From: Wolbachia endosymbiont of Cimex lectularius
GTDB lineage: Bacteria > Pseudomonadota > Alphaproteobacteria > Rickettsiales > Anaplasmataceae
DNA length: 32,000 bases
Direction: 5' to 3'
NCBI RefSeq assembly: GCF_000829315.1
Contig: NZ_AP013028.1
Span: forward strand, 690,001 to 722,000
Positions 5,609 through 30,521 of the stretch are shown here, piece after piece. Below the pieces are notes generated by a model that ran no database searches, was not told the DNA's origin, and saw only the letters and a program-made list of their open reading frames with translations. The translations under genes and the position numbers were made by a program. The first letter of the stretch is position 1, and every line of letters begins with the position of its first letter.

Positions 5609-5881
5609 ATGTATATAACCATTATAGGAACAGGGTATGTAGGTTTAGTATCTGGTACAATGTTATCAGAACAGGGCCATAATGTTGATTGTATTGACAT
5701 AAATACTAAGAAGATTGAGTTGTTAAAATCAGGAAAAATTCCCATATATGAACCTGGATTAGCAAACTATTTAGAGAATAATATAAAGCTGCAAAGGATA
5801 AGATTTTTCAATTCGTATTCTCAAATAAATTCCAATACGGAAGTAGTATTTGTAACCGTAGATACTCCATCAGATTCCTTA
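5609..5881 (+). pseudogene. ugd: UDP-glucose/GDP-mannose 6-dehydrogenase, 5' fragment truncated by IS copy 2
   Basis: MYITIIGTGYVGLVSGTMLSEQGHNVDCIDIN..KIELLKSGKIPIYEPGL...VVFVTVDTPSD is the N-terminal NAD-binding Rossmann domain (GxGYVG). The ORF runs straight into the IS terminal repeat at 5882, and no continuation exists downstream of the IS. Confidence 0.85.
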
Positions 5882-5943
5882 GAACCTGTTTAAAATCTTG
5901 GAAATGTGAGGTAAAGTAAGCATAGATTAATAATGAGGTGTCT

Positions 5944-6258
5944 ATGCAGAAAAGTTATCCAAGTAATATAAGTCAAGAGCAGTTTGAAAAAATCAGGCCA
6001 ATTTTGGAGAGTAGCAAGCAGAAAACAAAACCAAGAAAACTTGATTTGTATGACGTATTTTGTGGGGTGTTGTACGTCTTAAAAAGTGGTTGTCAGTGGA
6101 GGATGTTACCAAAGGGTTTTCCAAGATGGGAAAGCGTATATTACTATTTTCGAGTGTGGAGTAAAAAGAATGGAGAAGAGCCAAGCTTGTTGGAATTAGT
6201 CTTAAAAAAAATTAGTTGGAGAGGTCCGTATCAGCAATGGTCGGAAAGAGAAAACTAG
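5944..6258 (+). CDS. IS transposase OrfA (copy 2)
   Basis: Differs from copy 1 OrfA at three residues (P/L, T/I, S/N) and is identical to copy 3 OrfA. Confidence 0.85.
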   Translation: MQKSYPSNISQEQFEKIRPILESSKQKTKPRKLDLYDVFCGVLYVLKSGCQWRMLPKGFPRWESVYYYFRVWSKKNGEEPSLLELVLKKISWRGPYQQWSEREN

Positions 6259-6734
6259 CTTTTGTATAATTGATTCTCAAAGCGTTAAAAACGCAGATAC
6301 TGCTGAAAAAAAAAGACTATGATGCAGGTAAAAAGATTTCAGGGATAAAGCGCCATATTGCAGTTGATACACAAGGTTTGCCACATGCAATTTATGTAAC
6401 AACGGCAGAAGCAACTGACCGTAGCAGTGCTGTGAAAATGGTCGAAAATGCTAAAGCAAACCTCTCTGAAGTTAAAAACATACTGGTTGATGCTGGCTAC
6501 ACAGGAGAAAATTTTGCAACACAAATAAAAGCTATCATTGGTGCGACTGTTGAAGTAATAAAGCGAAGTGAGTTACACACTTTCGTCGTATTGCCAAAAA
6601 GATGGGTTGTTGAACGCTCTTTTGCCTGGTTAGAAAAGTGCAGGCGACTGTGGAAAAATTGCGAGCGGAAGCTCAACACTAGCTTACAGATGATAGTCCT
6701 CTCCTTCATTTCTCTCCTGTTACGAAGATTTTAA
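6206..6734 (+). pseudogene. IS transposase OrfB with an extra A in the second poly(A) tract (A9 at 6306-6314); the catalytic region is split over two frames
   Basis: The frame entered from the A8 tract (6204-6211) hits TGA at 6320-6322. The DDE remainder continues in another frame (track ORF 6270-6734). Confidence 0.7.
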
Positions 6735-6747
6735 ACAGGTTCTAAGA

Positions 6748-6840
6748 CAGTAAAAAACGCCAATTTAAAAGATAGATAGTGAATAACTAGCTAACTGGGT
6801 TTCTTTTGCCTTTTGTCTGTTTAGTAAATTTCTTAAACAT
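6748..6840 (-). repeat. Partial copy of the composite repeat family (terminal module), abutting IS copy 2
   Basis: aaaaacgccaat...ctgggtttcttttgccttttgtctgtttagtaaatttcttaaacat matches 12660-12730 and the reverse complement of 20113-20200 and 27505-27575. Confidence 0.7.
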
Positions 6841-11398: not shown

Positions 11399-12193
11399 AT
11401 GAGTTATATACCATTACAAAGCCGTGGTGTAATAGTTTTATACGGGCCAGACACAAGGGATTTCCTGCAGGGTATTATAACAAATGACATTAATAAGTTA
11501 GATAGCCAAAAGGCTATTTACTCTTTATTGCTTAGCCCCCAGGGAAAGTACTTATACGATTTTTTTCTGATTAGATATGGTAAATATATCCTCTTGGAAT
11601 GCGAAAATATGCACTTGCAGCAAATAATTGAGAAACTGGATTTGCTTAAAACTTACCTGAGAGTGAAGATTAAAGACGTTAGTTCATTGTATAAGGTTGG
11701 AGTTTTGTTTAATACTAAGTCAACAGAATGTAATGAGTCACAAATTATTTTTCAAGATCCAAGGCACAAATCCTTGGGAATGAGGATCATACATAAAGGC
11801 GAAATAAAGCAGCCAGCCGGAAATTTTACTCAATACGAAAAAGTTAGAATTCAAAACCTCGTTCCAGATGGAGCAAGAGATATGGTGCAGAATTCGTCGT
11901 TTCCGCTGCAATATTTAATCGATAAGGTCAACGGAATAAGCTTCAATAAGGAGTGTTATATAGGCCAGGAAGTTGTAAATCGAATGAGCAGGCAAGAAAC
12001 GTTCAGAAGAAAACTTTACCTTGTTGAGGGAAATAGCGCACTTCCAAATATCGGTACTAAAGTCACAAATGAGAACAATGAAGAAATAGGCGAACTGCGC
12101 TCTAGCGTAGACAATATTGGACTTGCATTGCTTTACACTGGGAAAAGCCACGCCAATTTATGTACTGGTGGGGTCAAAATATCTGCGCGTTAA
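11399..12193 (+). CDS. ygfZ: YgfZ/GcvT-family folate-binding protein (Fe-S cluster repair/tRNA modification associated)
   Basis: 264 aa; N-terminus L..RGVI.L.G.D...FLQG..TNDI and the signature near the C-terminus KECYIGQEVVNRM (KGCYxGQE). Confidence 0.75.
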   Translation: MSYIPLQSRGVIVLYGPDTRDFLQGIITNDINKLDSQKAIYSLLLSPQGKYLYDFFLIRYGKYILLECENMHLQQIIEKLDLLKTYLRVKIKDVSSLYKVGVLFNTKSTECNESQIIFQDPRHKSLGMRIIHKGEIKQPAGNFTQYEKVRIQNLVPDGARDMVQNSSFPLQYLIDKVNGISFNKECYIGQEVVNRMSRQETFRRKLYLVEGNSALPNIGTKVTNENNEEIGELRSSVDNIGLALLYTGKSHANLCTGGVKISAR

Positions 12194-12250
12194 GGTGCTT
12201 GGGTCTAAGTTAAGGCAGTGCATGCACTGGCCATAGAAATAAAAAACTAC

Positions 12251-12279
12251 TTGACAACCTTCGCTAGCGCCTTTACAAT
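12251..12279 (+). promoter_or_regulatory. Sigma70-type promoter-like module inside repeat R1 (TTGACA-N17-TACAAT)
   Basis: ttgaca (12251-12256), 17-nt spacer, tacaat (12274-12279), with an upstream A-tract aaaaaact. Confidence 0.55.
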
Positions 12280-12569
12280 AGAATTGTGGGTGTTTTAGGC
12301 CTAAAATTTATCTTTAATCTTGTATTAAGTGACAAAAGCACAGTATAAAACAAGGCGTGTTATGTTTTATTTTTGCAGCATGGACACTGCATGTCTTTAT
12401 AATCTTTTGTCTACATTAGCTGAGCCTCACTTATTAAGCGGTGTAAGAGAGAATCGGACGCCAAGTTTTTGAGAGAACAGTAAACAACTCACGTTGCGGG
12501 TTTTTTTTTGTCTTTTTTTTAAATTAGTTAAAATTTTAACCAATCTCATTTTTTTCACAAAAAAACTGC

Positions 12570-12598
12570 TTGACAAGTTTCGACATTTCCCTTATCAT
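12570..12598 (+). promoter_or_regulatory. Second promoter-like module inside repeat R1 (TTGACA-N17-TATCAT)
   Basis: ttgaca (12570-12575), 17-nt spacer, tatcat (12593-12598), preceded by aaaaaaactgc. Confidence 0.5.
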
Positions 12599-12858
12599 AA
12601 ATTATGGGTATTTACAACCCCAAGTTCAGCTACTTGTTAAGCGTATAGAGCATTAACGCCAAGTTATTAAAATGGATATTGACCAGGGTTTCTTTTGCCT
12701 TTTTCTCCATTTAGTAAATTTCTTAAATATTTATTACTAAAGTAGTATCCTGGGATGGCAGGAGAAGGAGCTACTTGGATGACACCCTCCTGGTAGGCTC
12801 GAATCACAGTGTTCATACAGTTGTAAGCGATACAGATTGGGCAGTCCTGGCTACTAAT

Positions 12859-13968
12859 CTATATATTTCTAAACGCAATACGCTTACGAAATTTTAGTGT
12901 AAGAGCTTGGTTTCTACTAAAAGACAGCATTATGCCAAGTGCAATGCTTGAAGATAAAAGAGAAGAGCCGCCATAGCTAAGTAATGGCAAAGTTATACCA
13001 GTGGTGGGAAAAATGCTTAACGTTACCCCTATGTTTATTATAAATTGTGCGATAAATTGAATCGAAATACCGAGAATTGCCAGCAGATTGAATAATTCAC
13101 TTTCTCTATATGCAACATAGAGTAAACGAGCGGAAATGATGCCAAACAACATCAATGTGGCTAAACACACAATCAAGCCAAATTCTTCTGCTAAAACAGA
13201 AAATACAAAATCTGTATGACAATCAGGAAGAGAGATTTTTACGCTACCTTCGCCAGGTCCAACACCGGTTAACTGGCCTTTTTTGAAAGCTTCCAATGAT
13301 TTTATAACTTGGAAATTATCACGCTGTGTAAAAAAGAGAAAATTGTAAACCCTTTGCTTTATATGCGGGAAACACAAGTAAGCCGCCGCAATTCCAGTTG
13401 TGACTATTCCTACTATGCATACAAAGTATAGAAGTGGTATACATGCAATAAACATTTGGCCGACAAAAGAATATGTCAAAAGCATAGACATACTGAAATC
13501 AGGCTGCAAAAGCAGCAATGTAAAAAACAACAAAAATATTATAATTGATATGTGAATTTTAAACTTCATTCCGCTAGCCAGGACACTAGCCATAACAACG
13601 GAAAAAAATGGCCTTACAAACTCAGATGGTTGAATTGAAATTTTGAAAATATGTAACCATCGTCTCGCGCCTTTTGTTTCCATGCCAAGTATTACCACAG
13701 CTACCATTAGAATAATAAATAGAGTAAAACCCGCAAGCGAGAGGTTAAGTATGGTTTTTATATTGAGAAAAGAAAATGTTACTAGGGTAACCAGTGACAG
13801 AACTATATAAACTGTATGGCGCTGTATAAAATAATTTTGCGGTAAAGAAAGGCGCTGTGCAATTGCAGGACTTGCCGAATGAACGAGAACGAAGCTTATA
13901 GTCAGCAAAAGGACTACTGGAATAATGAGATAATAATCTAGTGTTCTATACCAGAGTTTAATGTTCAT
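12859..13968 (-). CDS. SEDS-family peptidoglycan glycosyltransferase (FtsW/RodA/SpoVE family), 369 aa
   Basis: 10-TM protein with motifs [18 protein letters not shown] and ...[12 protein letters not shown] typical of FtsW/RodA. Which paralog it is cannot be decided by eye. Confidence 0.85.
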
Positions 13969-16809: not shown

Positions 16810-18960
16810 CTACTGAGCGCAAACCAATTTCTCGCACACACATTTTACTATATGATCAGCACTGATATTAAAATGCTTATAAAGTGTTTTATAAGGTGCT
16901 GATTCTCCAAAACTTTTCATACCGATAAATACTCCATTTGAACCTATATATTTATGCCAACCCATTTCACTTCCAGCTTCAATTGCAACTTTAATGCTGT
17001 CATTATTTAATATTGCTGCTTTATACTCATCACTTTGCTCGTCAAAAAGCCTCCAGCATGGCATAGAAACAACTCTTGTACCTATGCCTTTTTCCTGCAA
17101 TTTTTTCCCTGCTTCAACTGCAATTTCAACCTCAGATCCGGTGGCAAATATCGTTACTTCTAGCTCCCCTGAATATTCGCACAGGGTGTATGCACCAAAC
17201 TTCGATAGGTTGGCGGATTGATCAATTCCAAAGTGGAATTTGCGCATGTAATTCACATTTTGCCTTGAAAGTGCAAGCAGTGCGGGTGACTCTTTTTTTT
17301 CCAGTGCAATGCTGATGCACTCCAGAGTTTCGATTGCATCGGCTGGTCTAAAAACGTACAAATTTGGTATAGCACGAAGAGAGGCTAAATGCTCTATCGG
17401 CTGATGAGTTGGACCATCCTCCCCTACTCCGATTGAGTCGTGAGTCATTACATATATAACCTGCTGTCTCATCAAGGCTGAAAGACGTATAGCAGGGCAG
17501 CAATAATCGGAAAACACCAAGAAAGTGCCACCGTAAGGAAGAATTCCGCCATGAAGAGCCATGCCGTTCATACAAGCTGCCATAGCGTGTTCTCTCACTC
17601 CATAGTGGACATAAGAACCACTATAATCATTGCTATTTATTACCTCCATATGCTTATATTTAGTGCAATTTGACCCAGTAAGATCAGCAGACCCACCAAT
17701 TAATTCCGGCATGGACTTAGTTAAGAGTTCCATTACCTTGCCAAAAGAGGACCGTGTAGCTTCGTTTGGCATTGCCTCGTGTATTTGTTTCTTTAGGTTA
17801 GCCAAATCGCTCTCTATATTATCTGGTAAACGTTTCGCAAGTCTTCTTTGCAGTTCTTTATTTTCACTGGATTCCAGTGTCACGCACTGGAATGACACCG
17901 AATTGTTGATATTATCCGGCAAACGCTGTTTTTGAAGTTCTGCGTAATCCTCTGTTATTCCAGTTTCACTCTTTGTCATCCCAGCTCCACTCTTTGTCAT
18001 ACCAGTGCTTGACACTGGGATCCATTCTTTTTCTTCTTCACTGGTCAAGTGCTGGAACGACATCGAATTGTAATTTTGTTTTGCTCTCTCAACTGTTTCC
18101 ATCCAGGCATTTTTCACATCCTTTGGCACATGAAATGGTTCGTGGTTCCAATTTAATCTCTCTCTCATCTTTTTTATATCTTCCTCCGTAAAAGCACCAC
18201 TATGAGCAGAAGATGTACCGGCACGGCTTGAAAATTTCCCAATGATGGTTTTGCAGCAAATAAGCGACGGCTTGTCAGATTTTTGCGCTTGCTCTATTGC
18301 AAGCGCTATGGAGTTAAAATCATGACCATCAATTTTGTTAACATTCCACCCATAAGCTGAAAAACGCTTTTCCACGTCATCAGAACAAGAAAGGCTAGCA
18401 GTACCATCTATAGAGATGTCATTATCATCAAAAAGGGCTATCAACTTATTCAATTTAAGATGTCCAGCAAGTGATGCTGCTTCATGGCTTATTCCTTCCA
18501 TAAGACAGCCATCTCCTAGCATTACATAAGTGTAATGCTTAATTCCAAACTGCTTTTCAAGGATCGATTCAGCAAGTGCCATGCCAACTGAAGTGGCGAG
18601 CCCCTGCCCTAGTGGACCTGTTGTTGCTTCTATTCCTGGAGTCAAGCCAAACTCTGGATGACCTGGAGTTTTGGATGTGAGTTGCCTGAAGTTCTTTAAC
18701 TCATCTATACTAATGTAGCCTGTGAGGTATAATATGGAGTACAGCAGCATTGAACCATGGCCGTTTGATAAAACGAAACGGTCTCTGTTGAACCATTTAG
18801 AATCATCAGGGTTGTGATTTAGATATTTAGCAAATAAAACAGTTGCAACATCTGCCATGCCAAGTGGCATACCTGGGTGCCCAGAGTTTGCTTTTTGTAC
18901 TGCATCAATTGACAAAAAGCGGATAGCATTTGCCATAGATTCCAAAGGTAGATGGTTCAT
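16810..18960 (-). CDS. tkt: Transketolase (716 aa) carrying an in-frame repeat-derived insertion
   Basis: N-terminus [42 protein letters not shown] and [10 protein letters not shown] are all canonical. About 50 residues longer than typical ~660-670-aa enzymes. Confidence 0.97.
17857..18065 (+). repeat. Palindromic repeat sequences embedded in the tkt coding region
   Basis: Hairpin cores attccagtg/tcacg/cactggaat (17871-17893) and ccagtg/cttga/cactgg (18002-18018). The stretch tctgttattccagt..c.ttgtcatcc.ag...gacact.g.atcc (17951-18023) is shared with intergenic 20041-20096. Confidence 0.8.
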
Positions 18961-19016: not shown

Positions 19017-19046
19017 TTGACACTTAATGCTAAAATCCTTAATAAT
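19017..19046 (+). promoter_or_regulatory. Candidate rpsD promoter (TTGACA-N18-AATAAT)
   Basis: ttgaca at 19017-19022 and aataat at 19041-19046, about 28 nt upstream of the rpsD ATG. Confidence 0.5.
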
Positions 19047-19073: not shown

Positions 19074-19688
19074 ATGACAACTGTTATCAATAGAAAGTAT
19101 AGAATCAGCCGTAGGCTTGGTATAAATTTGTGGGGTAGGGCAAAAGATCCAGTAAACAAAAGGAAATACCCTCCAGGTCAGCACGGTATTCTTGGATTCA
19201 AAAGATTATCTGATTTTGGTAAGCAATTCGCTGCACATAAGAAATTTAAGTTTTATTATGCAATTTCAAGTAAGCAACTCAGGCGTATATTCTTAGATGC
19301 TTATAACAGAAAAGGTTACACAGCTGATAATTTTATTGGTATCTTAGAATCAAGGTTAAGTTCTATTTTGTATCACTCTGGCCTTGTACCAACAATTTAT
19401 TCAGCAAAACAGCTCATATCTCATGAGCATGTTACAGTTAATGATGAAGTGGTTAATATATCGAGCTATCGAGTAAAATCTGGTGATATAATAAAAATAA
19501 GAGAGAGAGCAGCAAAAATCCCTATAGTAGTAGAGGCTGCGGAAAAACAAGAACGCAAGGCTCCAGACTATTTAGAAACAAACAGTAAGGAGCATTCAGT
19601 GAAGTTTTTAAGAGTGCCTCAATACTCTGAAGTTCCTTACTCAGCGGATATGGAAGTTAATTTAGTAGTAGAGTTCTACTCTAGGTAA
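19074..19688 (+). CDS. rpsD: 30S ribosomal protein S4
   Basis: [26 protein letters not shown]...PPGQHG. Start placed at the ATG at 19074, because the track TTG at 19017 is the -35 hexamer. Confidence 0.95.
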
Positions 19689-19698
19689 AATAAAAAAA

Positions 19699-19785
19699 GC
19701 CCGTGTGGCGGAATCGGTAGACGCAGCGGACTTAAAATCCGTGGGTTTTGCGACCTTGGGAGTTCAAGTCTCCCCATGGGCACCA
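19699..19785 (+). tRNA. tRNA-Leu (anticodon UAA), type II with long variable arm, CCA encoded
   Basis: Acceptor GCCCGTG/CATGGGC (one G-U), D-arm gcggaatcggtagacgc, anticodon loop cTTAAa, T-arm gggagttcaagtctccc, discriminator A plus CCA. Confidence 0.92.
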
Positions 19786-19813
19786 ATTTAGTTTGGCAGA
19801 GTGTTCAAGAAAT

Positions 19814-20008
19814 ATGAAATGGTTTGATATAGAAGACATCGCAGAAGCTTTAGAGGAAAAATTTCCAGACGAAGATATAGTTAATATCAGGTTTACTGAG
19901 CTTAAAAAAAAGGTCTTGGGTTTAGAAGGATTTGACGATGATGAAAAACGTTGTAACGAAAAAATACTCGAAGCCATTCAAGTAGCTTGGATTGGAGAAA
20001 GATCTTAG
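19814..20008 (+). CDS. iscX: Fe-S cluster assembly protein IscX (YfhJ family), 64 aa
   Basis: MKWFDIEDIAEALEEKFPDEDIVNIRFTEL...LEGFDDDEKRCNEKILEAIQVAW parallels E. coli IscX (..KWTDSREIGEAL...PD.DP..VRFTD....LEDFDDDP..SNEKILEAI..VW). The start is trimmed so that the ORF does not overlap the tRNA. Confidence 0.82.
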   Translation: MKWFDIEDIAEALEEKFPDEDIVNIRFTELKKKVLGLEGFDDDEKRCNEKILEAIQVAWIGERS

Positions 20009-20040: not shown

Positions 20041-20565
20041 TTCTGTTATTCCAGTGCCCCTTTCTTGTCATCCAAGTAGCTGACACTAGAATCCAGGATA
20101 CTACTTTAGTTATAAATATTTAAAAAGTTTACCAAGCGAGAAAAAAAGCAAAAGAAGCCCTGGTCGGTGGCTAATTATTTATATGTACCTCAAATATCGG
20201 CGTTTTTATTCTCAGCGCTACGATTCAGCTACTTTTAAATGCAACTAACCAAAATTGTAAACGTTAAGAAATTTACTAAGCAGAAAAAAAGGCGAAAAAA
20301 CTCTAAGGCAGCTAGTATTCAAATTCTCCCTTGTCTATTTGACGTTCTATACTGTCTTAAACGACTTATAAGCGCGTTTCAGCTTGTATAGATAAAAACC
20401 AGAAGTTTTAAAAGACGTAAGGTGCACATAGTGCAAAAATTTAAACATGAGACGCCAAATACCCTAAGTTTTTTGTCATTAACCTGCACAGATTGCGAAG
20501 ATAAACAAATAGCTTCATAATAACAAGGTTGGTGAAGGTTGTCAAGTAGTTTTTTTCGTTTCTAT
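20041..20565 (+). repeat. Composite ~0.5-kb repeat, copy F2
   Basis: Order: palindromic head (20041-20105), two tandem ~125-150-nt modules starting near 20113 and 20262, then a ~200-nt tail ending in the promoter-like module. Collinear with 27497-27945. Confidence 0.8.
20517..20545 (-). promoter_or_regulatory. Promoter-like module in repeat F2 (TTGACA-N17-TATTAT on the minus strand)
   Basis: Plus strand has tgtcaa at 20540-20545 and ataata at 20517-20522, with 17 nt between. Upstream A-tract on the minus strand. Confidence 0.5.
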
Positions 20566-20723
20566 TGCTAAAAAATCTGAATCCAGCTAGCTGCGCATAG
20601 TTGGTAACAGCTTAGAAAGCAGATTTTAAGCTTAAAATTATACCTAAAAAAAATAACTTGATTGTGTATGCTAATATGCGTATATGCTAGATTTATTATT
20701 GATCTCATTAAAGGAGGGTTATT

Positions 20724-23511: not shown

Positions 23512-23558
23512 GTAAAATTTCTACTATAATAAATTATCAATAATAAACGGTAGTGACT

Positions 23559-24020
23559 ATGTCAACAGATTACAATATTAACTTGACTGACAATGCGTTA
23601 AAGAAAATTCACTCCCTTGTAGAGCAGGAAGAGGACAAAAGTTCTGTTTTGCGAGTTGCAGTTTCAGGTGGCGGATGTTCTGGCTTCAAGTATAATTTTC
23701 TTATAGATCAAATAAATAAAAGTCTATCTTTGAGTGATGACGACGATGATGATTACGATGATGAATTTGATGACGACGATGATGACGATTATGAAGAAAG
23801 CGAGGATTATAGAGGCCACTCTAGCTTTAGCAGGAAAAGCAAAGATATAGTAATTAACGACGAAAATGGAAACCCTGTATTAATGGTTGATAATTGTTCG
23901 GCGAAATTTTTAAATAACTCAACTATAGATTACACTGAAGATCTAAGTGGTTCTGGGTTTCAAATAAAAAATACTCTTGCTAAGTCTCAATGTGGGTGTG
24001 GTAACAGCTTCTCAGTTTAA
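23559..24020 (+). CDS. erpA: HesB/IscA/ErpA-family Fe-S cluster insertion protein with an internal acidic insertion
   Basis: LRVAVSGGGCSGFKYNF...IDYTEDLSGSGFQIKN..AKSQCGCGNSFSV is the canonical A-type carrier pattern. ATG at 23559 preferred over the GTG at 23553. Confidence 0.85.
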   Translation: MSTDYNINLTDNALKKIHSLVEQEEDKSSVLRVAVSGGGCSGFKYNFLIDQINKSLSLSDDDDDDYDDEFDDDDDDDYEESEDYRGHSSFSRKSKDIVINDENGNPVLMVDNCSAKFLNNSTIDYTEDLSGSGFQIKNTLAKSQCGCGNSFSV

Positions 24021-25668: not shown

Positions 25669-25839
25669 GTAGCTCCTAATAAAAACCTGCTTGACAGATA
25701 TTAACTAATGTAAATCGTGTATATATTAATTATATATTAATTTTACTGTTTTTGCAACAAGCTTTAAATCATACTTTTTATCATGTTAAGCTAATATATA
25801 TGACTGTTATAGCGAGTAGTAAAGAGTTTTCCTAATAAA

Positions 25840-26988
25840 ATGACAGATAAATCTTCAAGTCCCTTTTCTTTAGGTAGTGATTACGTATATGCTGACTATA
25901 ATGCAACTTCCCCAATTATCGACAGTGTAAAGAAGAGTATACTTGAGGTCTTATCAAAACAAATTCTGAATCCTTCATCATTACACAGAAGGGGACAAGA
26001 GGCGAGAAAGATTCTCCAGGATGCAAGAGATAATGTTCGTGGGATTATTGGCGCTTTAGGTGATAAAGAAGTAGTTTTTACGTCTGGTGCGACTGAAGCA
26101 AATAATCTTGTTATGAGAGGGATAGCGGGCTATCGATATGTAATTTCAGCTATAGAGCACCCTTCAATTCTCAATTCTGCGTATAATCCACATATAATAC
26201 CCGTTAATCAAGAAGGTGTTGTTGATCTTTTAGAGCTAGAAAAGATTCTGAGCAAACTTGAGAGGGATAGAGTAATAGTTTCAGTGATGATGGCTAATAA
26301 CGAAACTGGGGTTATTCAGCCTGTTAAGGAAGTAGCTGAAATAGCACATAAATTTGGAGCAATCTGTCACACCGATGCTGCTCAAAGCGTTGGAAAAATT
26401 GAAGTTAATATGGAAGATTTAGGGGTGGATTTACTCACTTTGTCCGCTCATAAATTCGGCGGTATAGCGGGTAGTGGAGTTTTAATATACGACAAAAAGC
26501 TTGTAATAGAACCTATCATAATAGGTGGCGGGCAAGAGAAAGGATTACGAGGTGGTACGGAAAATATTGTTGCAATTGCAGGTCTTTCTGCTGCATTGCG
26601 AGATATCCCAGATCTTCTATCAAAAATGGATGAAATAAAGAAGCTACGCGATCAATTGGAGTGTGAGCTGTTAAACTTTGCCAGCGGTATCAAAATCTTC
26701 GGTAAAAACTCCAAAAGGTTACCAAATACAAGTCTCATTTATATGCCGAAAGTAAGGAATGGCGTGCAGCTCATGCATTTTGACTTAAATAACATTGCAG
26801 TTAGCAATGGCTCTGCATGTTCTTCTGGAAAAGTTGAACCTTCCCATGTTTTGCTTGCAATGGGGGCAACAAAAGAGCAAGCAGAGTGTTCGATTAGAAT
26901 CAGTATAGGTCCAAAAACTAAACCACGAGACGTAGAAAAAATAGTGGATTGTTGGTATAATATCTATAAGAAGAACACTTTGGTATAG
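25840..26988 (+). CDS. Cysteine desulfurase, NifS/IscS family (class V aminotransferase), 382 aa
   Basis: PLP-lysine motif LSAHKFGG, TSGATEANN, and the active-site loop SNGSACSSG. Confidence 0.9.
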   Translation: MTDKSSSPFSLGSDYVYADYNATSPIIDSVKKSILEVLSKQILNPSSLHRRGQEARKILQDARDNVRGIIGALGDKEVVFTSGATEANNLVMRGIAGYRYVISAIEHPSILNSAYNPHIIPVNQEGVVDLLELEKILSKLERDRVIVSVMMANNETGVIQPVKEVAEIAHKFGAICHTDAAQSVGKIEVNMEDLGVDLLTLSAHKFGGIAGSGVLIYDKKLVIEPIIIGGGQEKGLRGGTENIVAIAGLSAALRDIPDLLSKMDEIKKLRDQLECELLNFASGIKIFGKNSKRLPNTSLIYMPKVRNGVQLMHFDLNNIAVSNGSACSSGKVEPSHVLLAMGATKEQAECSIRISIGPKTKPRDVEKIVDCWYNIYKKNTLV

Positions 26989-27077
26989 ATAAGATATCAA
27001 AAAAAACTACTTGGGTTGATAGAGAATTGCAATTTTGAAACCATCGATTAGGTCTTATCGCTACAGTCTCCCTATCA

Positions 27078-27110
27078 GAACCGTGCATGCGAATTTCCCG
27101 CACACGGTTC
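27078..27110 (-). ncRNA. Group II intron domain V-like hairpin (probable intron remnant)
   Basis: The minus strand reads GAACCGUGUGCGGGAAAUUCGCAUGCACGGUUC. Compare the classical domain V GAGCCGUAUGCGAUGAAAGUCGCACGUACGGUUC: same lower helix, 2-nt bulge and GAAA-containing apical loop. It is 1 nt shorter and has AAC in place of the AGC triad. Confidence 0.45.
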
Positions 27111-27496
27111 CACAATATAGTGTTCACAATATTTACTTCTGTGCATATAAGGAAACACATATTCTTGGCTTCGGTATACCAATTCCCATCACACAGGGAG
27201 CAGATATGCCACACGCTATTCTACTTGTTTCAGTATGGGCCTTTTCCTCGTTATTGTCCTATGTAATGGGAATTGGTATAAGCAATCAATCCAGTCAACA
27301 GTATCACTCCTTGCTCATTATAGACTTACAGCTTTGATTTAATATACAATCCAGGAAAATTTGCTTGTTCACAAGCAAACTGATTTGGTGATCATGGAAA
27401 GTAGCTAATCTTATGCTAAAAACGTTCTTGGTGAGGTTGCGTGATAAAGGCTGGACAGAATTACACCTTCTACCCAATTTATGAATTACAACTAGC

Positions 27497-27945
27497 TATA
27501 AATATTAAGAAATTTACCAAGCGAAAAAAAAAGCAAAAGAAACCCTGGTCAGTATTTATTTTTAGTATTGGCGTTTTTATGTCTTAAACGCTGCAATTTA
27601 GCTGCTTTTAAACGCAACTAGTCTAAGCTATAATATTTAAGAAATTTACCAGGCAGAAGAAAAGGACAATAAAACCCCGAGGTAGCTAGTTATTCCACTC
27701 TCTATTTTAAAATCCGGCGTTGGGTGATGTCTTAAACGACTTATAAGCGCGTTTCAGCTTGTATGGGTAAAAACCCGAAGTTTTAGACATGCAGTGCACA
27801 TAGTGCGAAAAATTAAACAATAGTACGCCAAATACAAGTTTTCTTGTCATTTTAACCTGCACAGATTGGGAAGTTAAACAAATAGCTTCAATACTATTGA
27901 TAAAAGGAATAGCGAAAGTTGTCAAGCAGTTTTTTTGTTTCTATT
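27497..27945 (+). repeat. Composite repeat, copy F3
   Basis: Collinear with 20105-20565: tandem modules starting near 27505 and 27630, then the tail gtcttaaacgacttataagcgcgtttcagcttgta...ending in ...gttgtcaagcagttttttt. Confidence 0.8.
27897..27925 (-). promoter_or_regulatory. Promoter-like module in repeat F3 (TTGACA-N17-TATCAA on the minus strand)
   Basis: Plus strand has tgtcaa at 27920-27925 and ttgata at 27897-27902, with 17 nt between. Confidence 0.45.
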
Positions 27946-28099
27946 GAATTCCCGTGGCTTCTGAATATATAGAGGTTGTCCGGAAGCTAGCAAATTCAAG
28001 CATATTCCCTCTTTAACATAACTCTACTCATAGCTAAGTATATGAAATTCTCAGTGAATGTTGTGAGTAAATCATACTCCTTCGATAGCCTTCTTTTTT

Positions 28100-28215
28100 C
28101 TGCCTGGTAAATTTCTTAAATATTATAGCTTAGACTAGTTGCGTTTAAAAGCAGCTAAATTGCAGCGTTAAAGGCATAAAAACGCCAATACTGGAAATAA
28201 ATACTGACCAGGGTT
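28100..28215 (-). repeat. Inverted partial copy of the repeat module; right arm of a 116-bp inverted repeat with 27541-27656
   Basis: The reverse complement of 28100-28215 aligns by eye to 27541-27656 with about 4 substitutions and no gaps. Confidence 0.85.
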
Positions 28216-28385
28216 TTTTTTACTTTTTTTTAGGTTATGCGAGAAGTCTGCTTTCATTTTGACTAAAAGTTTAATCATTACTAATATTAATAAAAATTTA
28301 ATAATAATCCTTAACAATATATGAATTAACATGTTCGCAGCTTCGCATGATAGAGGAAGTAGAAGAATATTCTCTTAGAACCTGT

Positions 28386-28914
28386 TTAAAATCTTCGTAA
28401 CAGGAGAGAAATGAAGGAGAGGACTATCATCTGTAAGCTAGTGTTGAGCTTCCGCTCGCAATTTTTCCACAATCGCCTGCACTTTTCTAACCAGGCAAAA
28501 GAGCGTTCAACAACCCATCTTTTTGGCAATACGACGAAAGTGTGTAACTCACTTCGCTTTATTACTTCAACAGTCGCACCAATGATAGCTTTTATTTGTG
28601 TTGCAAAATTTTCTCCTGTGTAGCCAGCATCAACCAGTATGTTTTTAACTTCAGAGAGGTTTGCTTTAGCATTTTCGACCATTTTCACAGCACTGCTACG
28701 GTCAGTTGCTTCTGCCATTGTTACATAAATTGCATGTGGCAAACCTTGTGTATCAACTGCAATATGGCGCTTTATCCCTGAAATCTTTTTACCTGCATCA
28801 TAGCCTTTTTTTTTCAGCAGTATCTGCGTTTTTAACGCTTTGAGAATCAATTATACAAAAGCTAGTTTTCTCTTTCCGACCATTGCTGATACGGACCTCT
28901 CCAACTAATTTTTT
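28386..28914 (-). pseudogene. IS transposase OrfB (copy 3) with A9 in the second poly(A) tract (28806-28814); the catalytic region is split over two frames
   Basis: Same frame structure as copy 2. One T-to-M difference (YVTMAEATD). Confidence 0.7.
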
Positions 28915-29176
28915 TTAAGACTAATTCCAACAAGCTTGGCTCTTCTCCATTCTTTTTACTCCACACTCGAAAATAGTAATATACGCTTTCCCATCTTGGA
29001 AAACCCTTTGGTAACATCCTCCACTGACAACCACTTTTTAAGACGTACAACACCCCACAAAATACGTCATACAAATCAAGTTTTCTTGGTTTTGTTTTCT
29101 GCTTGCTACTCTCCAAAATTGGCCTGATTTTTTCAAACTGCTCTTGACTTATATTACTTGGATAACTTTTCTGCAT
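28862..29176 (-). CDS. IS transposase OrfA (copy 3)
   Basis: Protein identical to copy 2 OrfA. Confidence 0.85.
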   Translation of the reverse strand: MQKSYPSNISQEQFEKIRPILESSKQKTKPRKLDLYDVFCGVLYVLKSGCQWRMLPKGFPRWESVYYYFRVWSKKNGEEPSLLELVLKKISWRGPYQQWSEREN

Positions 29177-29472
29177 AGACACCTCATTATTAATCTATGC
29201 TACTTTACCTCACATTTCCAAGATTTTAAACAGGTTCTTAGACCTTGCCATGCAGAAAAGCAATCAAAGTATGACTCAATTTCTAAAAGAAAATGGGGCA
29301 AAAACAAGTTTAGAGATAAAAGTGCAATTAGCAGTATTAACTACGCTAACTGTTATGACCCTCAGTTTAGCACTAGTAGTATATTCTGTTATGAAGGGCA
29401 TTCGAGAAATTTCTGCAAAAAAACCATGCGGCATTCTCGATGAAGTAGAGGGCAAAAGGGTGAGATCTTCAA

Positions 29473-30084: not shown

Positions 30085-30226
30085 TTACTGGACCTCCAAA
30101 GAGGACCTGGAGCCTAGATACTTCGATGTATGAACATTGCAACTTGTAGGTAGTTTGTGCAACAGACAGTAAGTGTTTGATACGTAAGCATTGTGATTTG
30201 AGAACTCTTTTCACTAAGAGGATGTT

Positions 30227-30431
30227 ATCCCAGTGCCTGAGCACTGGGATCCAGGAATGCTGGTTGAACACTAGATTGGTAAGTATGGAAGTAATTAACC
30301 TAATGTTAAAACACAGCGTCAACTTTTCCGGATTCCAAATAGGAACAACATGGAATGACACAAGAAATCTAATGTTTATTAAACCCATTTGCAAGCAAAG
30401 TTTGCTGGATCCCAGTGTCAAGCACTGGGAT
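30227..30431. repeat. Pair of inverted palindromic elements (MITE-like) in the ccmA upstream spacer
   Basis: atcccagtgc/ctga/gcactgggat (30227-30250) and atcccagtg/tcaag/cactgggat (30409-31). The wider motifs gatgttatcccagtgc...gggatccagg and ctggatcccagtg...gggatgacatcc are reverse complements of each other. Confidence 0.75.
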
Positions 30432-30521
30432 GACATCCTTGTGTCTGAGGCAACACTGGCTGTAAAACTTAACATAATTCAAGGAGTTTAATATCAGAAA
30501 GTAGGCTGTACAACGGATACA

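Follow-up and report, generated by a model that had tools for sequence, protein, structure and literature searches.

Four promoter-like boxes at the edges of one repeat

The stretch analyzed here, 32,000 nucleotides (nt) from the Wolbachia endosymbiont of Cimex lectularius (contig NZ_AP013028.1, positions 690,001 to 722,000 of the forward strand; hereafter the window), carries four promoter-like boxes in which TTGACA is followed after 17 nt by a −10-like hexamer. Direct reading of the sequence found them exactly as an earlier note on this DNA had written them, at 12251-12279 (+, TTGACA-N17-TACAAT), 12570-12598 (+, TTGACA-N17-TATCAT), 20545-20517 (−, TTGACA-N17-TATTAT, with the TG of an extended −10), and 27925-27897 (−, TTGACA-N17-TATCAA). 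They belong to copies A, B, C, and D, respectively, of an intergenic repeat, and at each of the three loci the box is directed at the 3′ end of a gene. Copies A and B face a SEDS gene (PF01098) with its 3′ end at 12859, copy C faces the IscX gene ending at 20008, and copy D faces a class-V aminotransferase gene of the cysteine desulfurase type ending at 26988; the convergent context is the one previously described.

Alignment of the four copies showed that all four boxes form the 5′ edge of one composite repeat, which consists of a box module, a body of ~250 nt (missing in copy B), and one or two 3′ units that end GGGYTTCTTTTGC-T-run-TAAATTTCTTAA. Copy A (12231..12559, +) represents a divergent "A-type" subfamily, begins with the left edge CCATAGAAAT, and has its A-tract at 12241-12246, the −35 element at 12251-12256, the −10 element TACAAT at 12274-12279, and a noncoding body with T-tracts at 12494-12528. 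Copy B (12550..12742, +) lies in tandem with it, 319 nt from box to box, and is an internally deleted A-type copy with an A-tract (12560-12565), −35 (12570-12575), −10 TATCAT (12593-12598), and a single 3′ unit with the end ...GTAAATTTCTTAAATATTTATTACTAAA. Copies C and D are canonical and full length. The former (20109..20568, −; ~460 nt) starts with GCAATAGAAAC followed by the A-tract, carries −35 at 20545-20540 and −10 TATTAT at 20522-20517 with TG ahead of it, holds GGCGTCTCATGTTTAA and a GCAC-TAT-GTGC hairpin in its 5′ region, and has two tandem 3′ units at a spacing of 144 nt. The latter (27492..27947, −; ~456 nt) starts with CAATAGAAAC and an A-tract, has −35 at 27925-27920 and −10 TATCAA at 27902-27897, and its two tandem 3′ units are spaced by 132 nt. 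Palindromic-element-like tails were seen behind copy B (~12745-12795) and copy C (20055-20108); they are similar to the WsnRNA46-type element described further below.

The −35 element has all six bases of TTGACA in the four copies, the spacer is 17 bp in each of them (the sigma-70 expectation being 17 ± 1 bp), and AAAAAACTRC precedes every box, as had been noted. An A at position 2 and a T at position 6 of the −10 hexamer were found in copies A, B, and C and not in copy D (TATCAA), and the promoter scan passed over copy D since position 6 is not T. The claim that every copy keeps an invariant box was thus a slight overstatement: it holds for TTGACA and N17 in 4/4 copies but not for the −10 element of copy D, which lacks the final T.

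The 17-mer AAAAAACTRCTTGACAA occurs exactly four times in the window. With up to three mismatches, it gave 5 matches versus 0.73 expected, a number that none of 100 shuffles reached, and the pattern TTGACA-N17-TAYMAW gave 3 versus 0.12 expected. Generic promoter-like sites, at 53 versus 51.9 expected, were not enriched in the region, indicating that the signal lies in the repeated box and not in AT-richness. A chance promoter-like sequence in AT-rich DNA is ruled out by these statistics, together with the published transcription start sites (TSSs) presented below.

The repeat family in Wolbachia genomes

Copies were gathered from one genome per bacterial or archaeal species by a body motif, GGCGTSTYATGTTYWAWTTTT, rather than by the box, which yielded at least 120 DNA stretches (cited below by L numbers). 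Among the matches listed, nearly all were from Wolbachia or from metagenome-assembled genomes labeled "Rickettsiales". One complete genome of 1.39 Mb has at least 26 motif-bearing 8-kb blocks scattered round the chromosome, and at least one of the matches, that of the closest relative (L007), is 95.6% identical to the window over ~5 kb. A-type copies with the layout of copy A were found in other Wolbachia genomes (L046, L049, and L109), and copy C has orthologues in L097 and L086.

The consensus element is ~470 nt long. Conservation begins abruptly at (CAATAGAAAC)AAAAAAAACTACTTGACA and stops after ...GGTAAATTTCTTAAATATTTATAGCTAAAC, and the box is the extreme 5′ edge of the element, directed inwards. 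From this edge, the order is an A-tract at about −47 to −41 (the position of an UP element), CTTGACA, N17, the −10 element TAtcAT, and the start 7 nt on. There follows a 5′ region of ~140 nt with small hairpins and then two tandem units of ~135-145 nt; in the usual layout the box lies ~95 nt ahead of the body motif, and the two 3′ units lie at about +185 and +330.

Being small (~470 bp), multicopy, and devoid of a conserved open reading frame (ORF), the repeat has the size and copy number of a MITE (miniature inverted-repeat transposable element, a nonautonomous DNA transposon). Terminal inverted repeats were found neither in copies C and D, where there is just low-complexity complementarity of A-runs with T-runs plus short internal pairs, nor in the family consensus, the ends of which are not complementary; a MITE with terminal inverted repeats was accordingly rejected. 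Across ~1 Mb of related loci, the search turned up neither a target-site duplication nor a clean empty site, and different subfamilies occupied the same sites. A phage origin was rejected as well, with one match in IMG/VR.

Conservation of the box

Conservation was measured on 89 distinct copies from other Wolbachia genomes, the retrieval of which was independent of the box. Mean identity was 0.31 in the upstream flank, 0.66 in the A-tract, 0.82 in CTRCT, and 0.957 in the −35 element, followed by 0.73 in the spacer, 0.85 in the −10 element, 0.66 in the discriminator, and 0.75 in the rest of the body. TTGACA ranked first among 441 hexamers. TTGACA-N17-TAnnnT is kept in 70/89 copies (79%) and TTGACA-N17-TA in 78/89, with another spacing in a single copy; the spacer is hence fixed at 17 nt in length and variable in sequence. 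Conservation within the −10 element (T.9, A.9, T.8, C.5, A.8, T.8) follows the pattern that marks a functional sigma-70 −10 element.

At orthologous sites, flanks are ~95% identical and the −35 element is identical in seven of eight pairs, and the spacer, the −10 element, and the body are just 62 to 76% identical over the nine pairs taken together (in the ninth, L062/L121, one partner is without the element). In L016/L046, in L074/L027/L083, and between the window (12231-12275) and L007 (5746-5792), identity falls from ~95% to ~65% right after the −35 element.

This edge of identity would be expected if the box were kept for a role at the DNA level, as a recognition end of a mobile element or a homology anchor for recombination, with its promoter activity incidental; CTTGACAA would be the candidate protein-bound sequence. 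Flank-like identity runs through the A-tract and −35 and drops immediately behind them, also between the window and L007, and different subfamily bodies stand behind the same left junction (L016/L046; L074/L027/L083). A recombination anchor predicts neither a −10 element in which T, A, and the last T are kept and the middle is free nor an invariant spacer length, and both count against this explanation, as do TSSs at the canonical distance and the lack of terminal inverted repeats and of a detected target duplication. We therefore regard a DNA-level role as improbable and favor selection on promoter function.

Start sites mapped on homologous copies

The box had been proposed to start transcription ~7 nt after the −10 element. 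Published 5′ ends on sister copies bear this out, both by Cappable-seq in the strains wMelPop-CLA and wAlbB and by rapid amplification of cDNA ends (5′-RACE) in wMel, and together with the family-wide conservation they support the reading of TTGACA-N17 as a promoter. For the Cappable-seq data, we compared the 50-nt upstream and 100-nt downstream sequences of the TSSs in Tables S1-S3 of Suliman et al. 2025 (PMC12558409). Primary TSSs with the box upstream and the repeat body downstream occur in both strains. In wMelPop-CLA, these are oTSS_-_131390, iTSS_+_713865, oTSS_-_528421, and iTSSps_+_1067756, at 34-69 counts per million (cpm), and a diverged variant near WD1309 at 720 cpm; in wAlbB, they are oTSS_+_280648 (of the copy A type), oTSS_+_402708 (758 cpm), and oTSS_+_1119165 (PMC12558409). 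Copy C of the window is closely similar to oTSS_-_528421, and the 5′ transcribed region of copy A is similar to oTSS_+_280648. When window copies and mapped copies were aligned, CTTGACA was invariant in 10/10 sequences, and the mapped +1 fell 7 nt behind the −10 element, on the G of GAAGCTATT; for iTSSps_+_1067756, it fell on the T directly before that G. TATAAT and TTGACA motifs also stand upstream of Wolbachia TSSs in general (PMC12558409).

Two wMel 5′-RACE clones agree with this picture (Woolfit et al. 2015, PMC4349823). IGR-1047 starts GAAGCTATTG... (fuller start, GAAGCTATTGTATTTGC) and IGR-1021 starts GAAGGCATTC... (fuller start, GAAGGCATTCAGTTATCTTC), so the RACE 5′ ends, like the Cappable-seq ones, lie at or within 1 nt of the position 7 nt after −10, where 6 to 8 nt is expected of a sigma-70 promoter. 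Primers for at least eight candidate expressed intergenic regions of that study match family sequence, namely those of IG-151, 446, 921, 1021, 1035, 1047, and 1049 and the "IGR-392" primer target. Most of the family regions were dropped there as candidates, being repetitive or having failed in RACE with plus-strand primers (PMC4349823). The RACE attempts that failed are uninformative, as all primers were designed on the plus strand (PMC4349823); the IGR-446 primer, to name one, has the same sense as the RNA that Cappable-seq mapped.

By homology, the predicted starts in the window are at about 12287 (copy A; 12286-12288), 12606 (copy B), and 20510 (copy C) and at the G at 27889 (copy D). Copies A, B, and C would then fire in the window strain, and the promoter of copy D is probably weak because its −10 element TATCAA lacks the conserved last T.

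After a 4-h temperature shift, the wMel TSSs 131390 and 713865 showed log2 fold changes of 2.4 and 1.4 at 34°C and of 2.4 and 1.6 at 21°C (PMC12558409, Table S1), i.e., an ~3- to 5-fold increase at either temperature; classical heat shock genes rise at 34°C and fall at 21°C. A sigma-32 promoter was considered, as suggested by a likeness to CTTGA..CCCC..TAT and by the heat induction of these two copies. It was ruled out by the equal induction at 21°C, which is unlike that of groES, dnaK, and grpE, by the sigma-70 distance of the TSSs, and by the window copies, which are without the C-run.

Coding potential, folding, and termination of the repeat RNA

The RNA of the repeat is probably noncoding. 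No conserved ORF was found across subfamilies: ORFs of 25 to 64 amino acids (aa) are present, the frame differs by subfamily, and the one that opens at the internal ATG shuts after 13 codons in the consensus of the family. Copy C has a 33-aa ORF (MFKFLHYVHLTSFKTSGFYLYKLKRAYKSFKTV) at 20449-20348 (−), starting at the ATG of the GGCGTCTCATG motif, and related versions of 37 to 50 aa are present in some copies of other genomes.

The transcript might alternatively be an mRNA for a small peptide, e.g., MFNFLHYVHLMSLLISPRLLGFSLYKLKRAYKSFKTV, resembling a type I toxin. Several copies in different genomes, including copy C, do carry an ORF of 33 to 50 aa from the ATG in GGCGTCTYATG. The conserved small hydrophobic ORF of a type I toxin-antitoxin system was nevertheless not found, given the closed frame in the consensus and another frame in the largest subfamilies; no Shine-Dalgarno sequence precedes the ATG, and amino acid changes are as frequent as nucleotide changes. 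A coding function is therefore extremely improbable in our view.

Neither was a known or a conserved RNA structure recovered over the full element. The covariance models of Rfam 15 did not match the repeats, whether the gathering threshold or an E value of ≤1 was applied, by which a known RNA family was rejected. RNAalifold on 71 transcripts returned a consensus fold of −1.49 kcal/mol, which is essentially none, and the window transcripts were no stabler than dinucleotide shuffles (minimum free energy z = −0.61, −1.09, and +0.03).

On a local scale, a 5′-terminal stem, GAAGCTA...TAGCTTC, recurs, and the hairpin behind the body motif has a subfamily-specific sequence (GCAC-TAT-GTGC, CAGTAC-ATAG-GTACTG, or TGCAG...CTGCA). 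Substitution series run through an AGGT-TTTT-ACCT hairpin (AU/GU/GC and GC/AU/GU) and an AACGC...GCGTT hairpin (CG/UA/UG). In a hand-drawn structure, double-change cells numbered 31 versus 17 in shuffles, a value reached by 0/500; pairs with double changes numbered 9 versus 7.9 and were matched by 181/500 shuffles. G-U exceeded A-C by 123 versus 59 cells, chiefly in two stems (H1 and H3) and on the sense strand. These data give weak support to a few local sense-strand hairpins and none to a complex fold.

They bear on the possibility that the repeats are a multicopy family of genes whose RNA regulates in trans, or serves as a precursor of small RNAs that are exported to the host, so that the promoter is kept for its RNA product. 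Conservation of the promoter in the face of turnover of the bodies would fit this idea, and so would the series in two small hairpins (AU/GU/GC and CG/UA/UG), the sense-strand G-U excess in H1 and H3, the differing hairpin sequences at the same position by subfamily, and the response of two wMel copies to 4 h at 34°C or 21°C. It is difficult to reconcile with the lack of a consensus fold and of stability beyond shuffles, with the number of double-change pairs, which is no better than in shuffles, with the absence of an Rfam match and of a known defined 3′ end, and with bodies that at orthologous sites are just 68 to 76% identical versus 95% for the flanks. We consider it possible but unlikely, and retain as the preferred reading a promoter that serves transcription of the element.

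Long T-tracts had been reported in copy A in the path of its transcript, and they are present at 12494-12528. Intrinsic terminators at these tracts were rejected: the terminator scan detected none at 12494-12528 or in the 3′ units, the T9 of copy A is preceded just by a 4-bp CAAC/GTTG stem, and a wMel RACE clone passes the equivalent T-run. This clone, IGR-1047, extends for >330 nt, crossing the first T-run and reaching the second 3′ unit, and the IG-1021 RNA is cotranscribed with the downstream coding sequence (PMC4349823). The data thus do not point to discrete small RNAs (sRNAs) of 100 to 250 nt that end at the T-tracts, in that one RNA runs past the first tract and another enters the downstream gene.

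Neighboring genes and turnover of copies

With read-through of the T-runs, the effect of a copy on its neighbor would depend on the site and orientation of that copy. Among 60 scorable copies, 31 were convergent and 29 co-directional with respect to the downstream gene, i.e., orientation is random, and firing towards a convergent gene, which the earlier note described for all three loci, is a coincidence of the window. Its reading of the transcripts as sRNAs or antisense RNAs has partial support but none as a trait of the family at large; against it are the random orientation, the absence of a conserved ORF and of a significant global fold, the lack of an Rfam match, and the defective −10 element of copy D. 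For co-directional copies, the distance from the 3′ end of the element to the start of the downstream gene is mostly no more than a few hundred nt, which fits the cotranscription of IG-1021.

These counts bear on the proposal that the copies are dedicated cis-antisense regulators of their convergent neighbors (the SEDS, iscX, and cysteine desulfurase genes). All three window loci aim at a convergent gene 3′ end, and T-runs do not halt transcription in the wMel RACE clone, both of which speak for such regulation. The near-equal numbers in the 60 copies argue otherwise. In the Cantharis cryptica Wolbachia genome (L121), moreover, the element by the SEDS gene is the opposite way round, and ~500 nt of mosaic repeat plus an intron remnant separate copy D from its presumed target. 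Dedicated antisense control is very improbable on this evidence; the neighbor effects would instead be by-products of where copies landed.

On the upstream side, the gene was co-directional in 52 versus 30 of 82 cases (L005-L124), a modest bias in which orthologues may have been counted repeatedly. Its stop codon usually lies 14 to 130 nt ahead of the box, as it does for copy A and the YgfZ-like gene (stop at 12193; matches to the window protein were in Wolbachia assemblies only). The pattern points to a preference for positions shortly behind the 3′ end of a gene.

The occupants of such sites change. In the YgfZ-SEDS spacer, L007 has the same left junction as the window and the body of another subfamily, and at L016/L046 and L074/L027/L083 a shared left junction leads, depending on the strain, into one of two or three subfamily bodies. 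Either exchange between copies is frequent or insertion has been repeated at one spot, as these data suggest. The family is dynamic, by intercopy exchange and/or reinsertion, and is not tied to particular target genes.

The window also has 3′ units on their own. One, without a promoter box (28094..28231, +), is an inverted copy of 27525-27662 with 95% complementarity, from which it follows that the family is modular, or mosaic. Another, partial unit (...GGGTTTCTTTTGCC...TAGTAAATTTCTTAA; 6752..6840, +) lies just after a copy of an IS5-family insertion sequence (IS). This IS, ~870 bp long and encoding DUF4096 and DDE_Tnp_1 split over two ORFs, is present in three copies that are 99 to 100% identical (1968-2838, 5878-6748, and 28368-29241), two of which adjoin the solo units at 6752-6840 and 28094-28231.

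Other features of the window

At 25681-25697 (+), upstream of the cysteine desulfurase gene, lies a partial fifth box edge (AAAAACCTGCTTGACAG). Lacking both a −10 element at 17 nt and a repeat body, it may be a left edge on its own or a gene promoter unrelated to the repeat. The single-copy box TTGACA-N18-AATAAT at 19017-19046 (+), cited earlier as a comparator in front of rpsD (19074-19688), is real and unrelated to the repeat. It stands 28 nt upstream of the rpsD start, which is the ATG at 19074 and not the TTG of TTGACA, and is likely the promoter of that gene; in wAlbB, a secondary rpsD TSS lies upstream of the homologous box (PMC12558409).

A remnant of group II intron domains V-VI was detected at 27009-27112 (−; Rfam RF00029, 46.8 bits) without an intron body, and a mosaic of other short repeats adjoins it at 27112-27480. 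At the 3′ end of this remnant, AAAAAAAACTACTTG (26998-27013, +) is identical to the 5′ edge of the repeat up to and including the first half of the −35 element. The CAAGT in it is probably the intron end, in which case the match may be a coincidence, or the intron may have inserted into a repeat copy. A relationship of the repeat itself to group II introns was rejected, as there is just the D5-D6 remnant.

WsnRNA46 was matched in Rfam at 30206-30454 (−, 68.6 bits) with a 122-nt loop insertion; the match belongs to the TGTCATCCCAGTGCTTGACACTGGGATCC type of long palindromic elements, and a related 30-nt palindromic arm occurs at 17995-18024. The longest IscX ORF (19748-20008) overlaps the 3′ part of tRNA-Leu(TAA) (19699-19785), and the Pfam match of IscX begins at residue 23, so that the actual start codon probably lies downstream of this tRNA. 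Within the ORF at 23553-24020, GAT/GAC-rich repeats of 9 to 12 nt (23735-23810, +) encode a poly-Asp/Glu stretch.

Relation to known repeats

In part, the repeat and its transcription are already known; what is new, as far as could be searched, is that they make up one promoter-bearing family. A literature search with the element sequences returned nothing relevant in main texts. Among the wMel repeat classes of Wu et al. 2004 (PMC368164, Table S1), three coincide with it: a piece (713868-714146) of class 11, the most abundant with 89 pieces, begins 3 nt past TSS 713865; class 29 pieces (1067796-1068144) come after TSS 1067756; and a class 4 piece (1190018) comes after the RACE 5′ end at 1190012. 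These classes, like the repeat, are dispersed, intergenic, and noncoding, and were matched by coordinates, not by sequence; the 2004 study gives fragment coordinates alone, without a consensus element, promoter, or transcription. Its "repeat family 8", with 45 copies and reportedly flanked by inverted repeats (PMC368164), may or may not be the promoter-bearing repeat. The regions of Woolfit et al. 2015 and the orphan TSSs of Suliman et al. 2025 are family members by sequence, with the TSS where predicted, and both studies handled the loci singly, with the key data in supplements. Identity with ncrwmel01 or ncrwmel02 was rejected, the latter being another sequence and the former of the palindromic-element type.

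A typing locus may belong here too. According to Riegler et al. 2012 (PMC3287509), the variable-number tandem repeat (VNTR) VNTR-105 lies between WD1129 and WD1131 in wMel-like Wolbachia; the period is 105 bp in VNTR-105 and 141 bp in VNTR-141, and hairpins of 23 bp are present. The former locus corresponds to IG-921 (tRNA-Arg-4/WD1131, 1,080,340-1,081,546), which holds class 11 pieces (1,080,494-1,080,929) and whose RACE primer matches the 3′ unit of the repeat. VNTR-105 appears to be an array of such units, which are likewise tandem with periods of 132 to 144 nt, a link made by coordinates and one primer and not by alignment. Class 11/29 pieces at 90,084-90,484 may be VNTR-141.

The closest functional analogues would be promoter-carrying small repeats such as the Correia elements of Neisseria, which are 100 to 155 bp long and have 26-bp terminal inverted repeats, a TA target duplication, and outward-facing end promoters. 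Correia elements and promoter-carrying MITEs share with the Wolbachia repeat that they are short, abundant, noncoding, and intergenic and that they carry functional sigma-70 promoters to other sites and alter the transcription of neighbors. The latter differs in its length of ~470 bp, in the lack of terminal inverted repeats, in its one inward promoter at the 5′ edge, and in its internal tandem units. Repetitive extragenic palindromes (REPs), the units of bacterial interspersed mosaic elements (BIMEs) in enterobacteria, are GC-rich palindromes of 20 to 40 bp without promoters. BIMEs and REP mosaics resemble the present family as modular intergenic mosaics that combine a few motifs variably and often lie just downstream of genes; its own modules are AT-rich, longer, and promoter led.

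A probable promoter carried by an intergenic repeat

Taken together, we think it reasonably likely that the boxes function as sigma-70 (RpoD) promoters and are part of a mosaic intergenic repeat of ~470 bp, specific to Wolbachia, of which they form the 5′ edge. RNA polymerase would start at the edge of the element and transcribe its whole noncoding body, and with poor termination at the T-runs it would continue into whatever lies downstream. At all three window loci, the SEDS, iscX, and cysteine desulfurase genes would thereby be entered at their 3′ ends by convergent or antisense transcription; for about half of the copies elsewhere it would mean sense read-through or a leader for the downstream gene. 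We infer that selection for the element's own transcription has kept the promoter, the candidate causes being an element-level need for transcription, a useful RNA, and a portable promoter.

Several points weigh against this interpretation. The mapped 5′ ends all come from strains other than that of the window, and most mapped copies are modestly expressed (34-69 cpm), though related variants reach 720-758 cpm. In the window, the −10 element of copy D is TATCAA, and the alignment shows a deletion in copy C by which the 7 nt between −10 and the ancestral +1 are gone. Selection on the box, as suggested before, is backed by the −35 element being the best-conserved hexamer and by the fixed spacer length, but the box is not uniquely conserved: several hexamers of the body come close at 0.94-0.955 (GTCTTT 0.955, CGCTTA 0.946), so that part of the conservation could reflect recent spread or gene conversion. 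Compensatory changes in some hairpins hint at a function of the RNA or DNA body of its own, and the poor termination is deduced from one RACE clone and one reverse transcription-PCR result.

Wolbachia has two sigma factors and very few regulators, yet its orphan and antisense start sites number in the hundreds. If each genome carries tens of near-consensus promoters of this kind, a sizeable share of the orphan TSSs and of the "highly expressed intergenic regions" would be explained. Strains would differ in neighbor transcription where they differ in the presence, orientation, or box integrity of a copy, and VNTR typing loci would be tied to transcribed DNA. The repeat also offers a cheap and concrete target for tests of promoter and RNA function in an organism that is not genetically manipulable. 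A further, rather unlikely prospect is that in arthropod Wolbachia the intergenic repeat with the most copies is a modular RNA gene that transcribes itself and spreads or is exchanged between sites, and the promoter of which is selected because the RNA acts in trans on Wolbachia genes or feeds host-delivered small RNAs. Were this so, tens of stress-responsive loci per genome would constitute a hitherto unrecognized level of regulation in a bacterium that has hardly any transcription factors.

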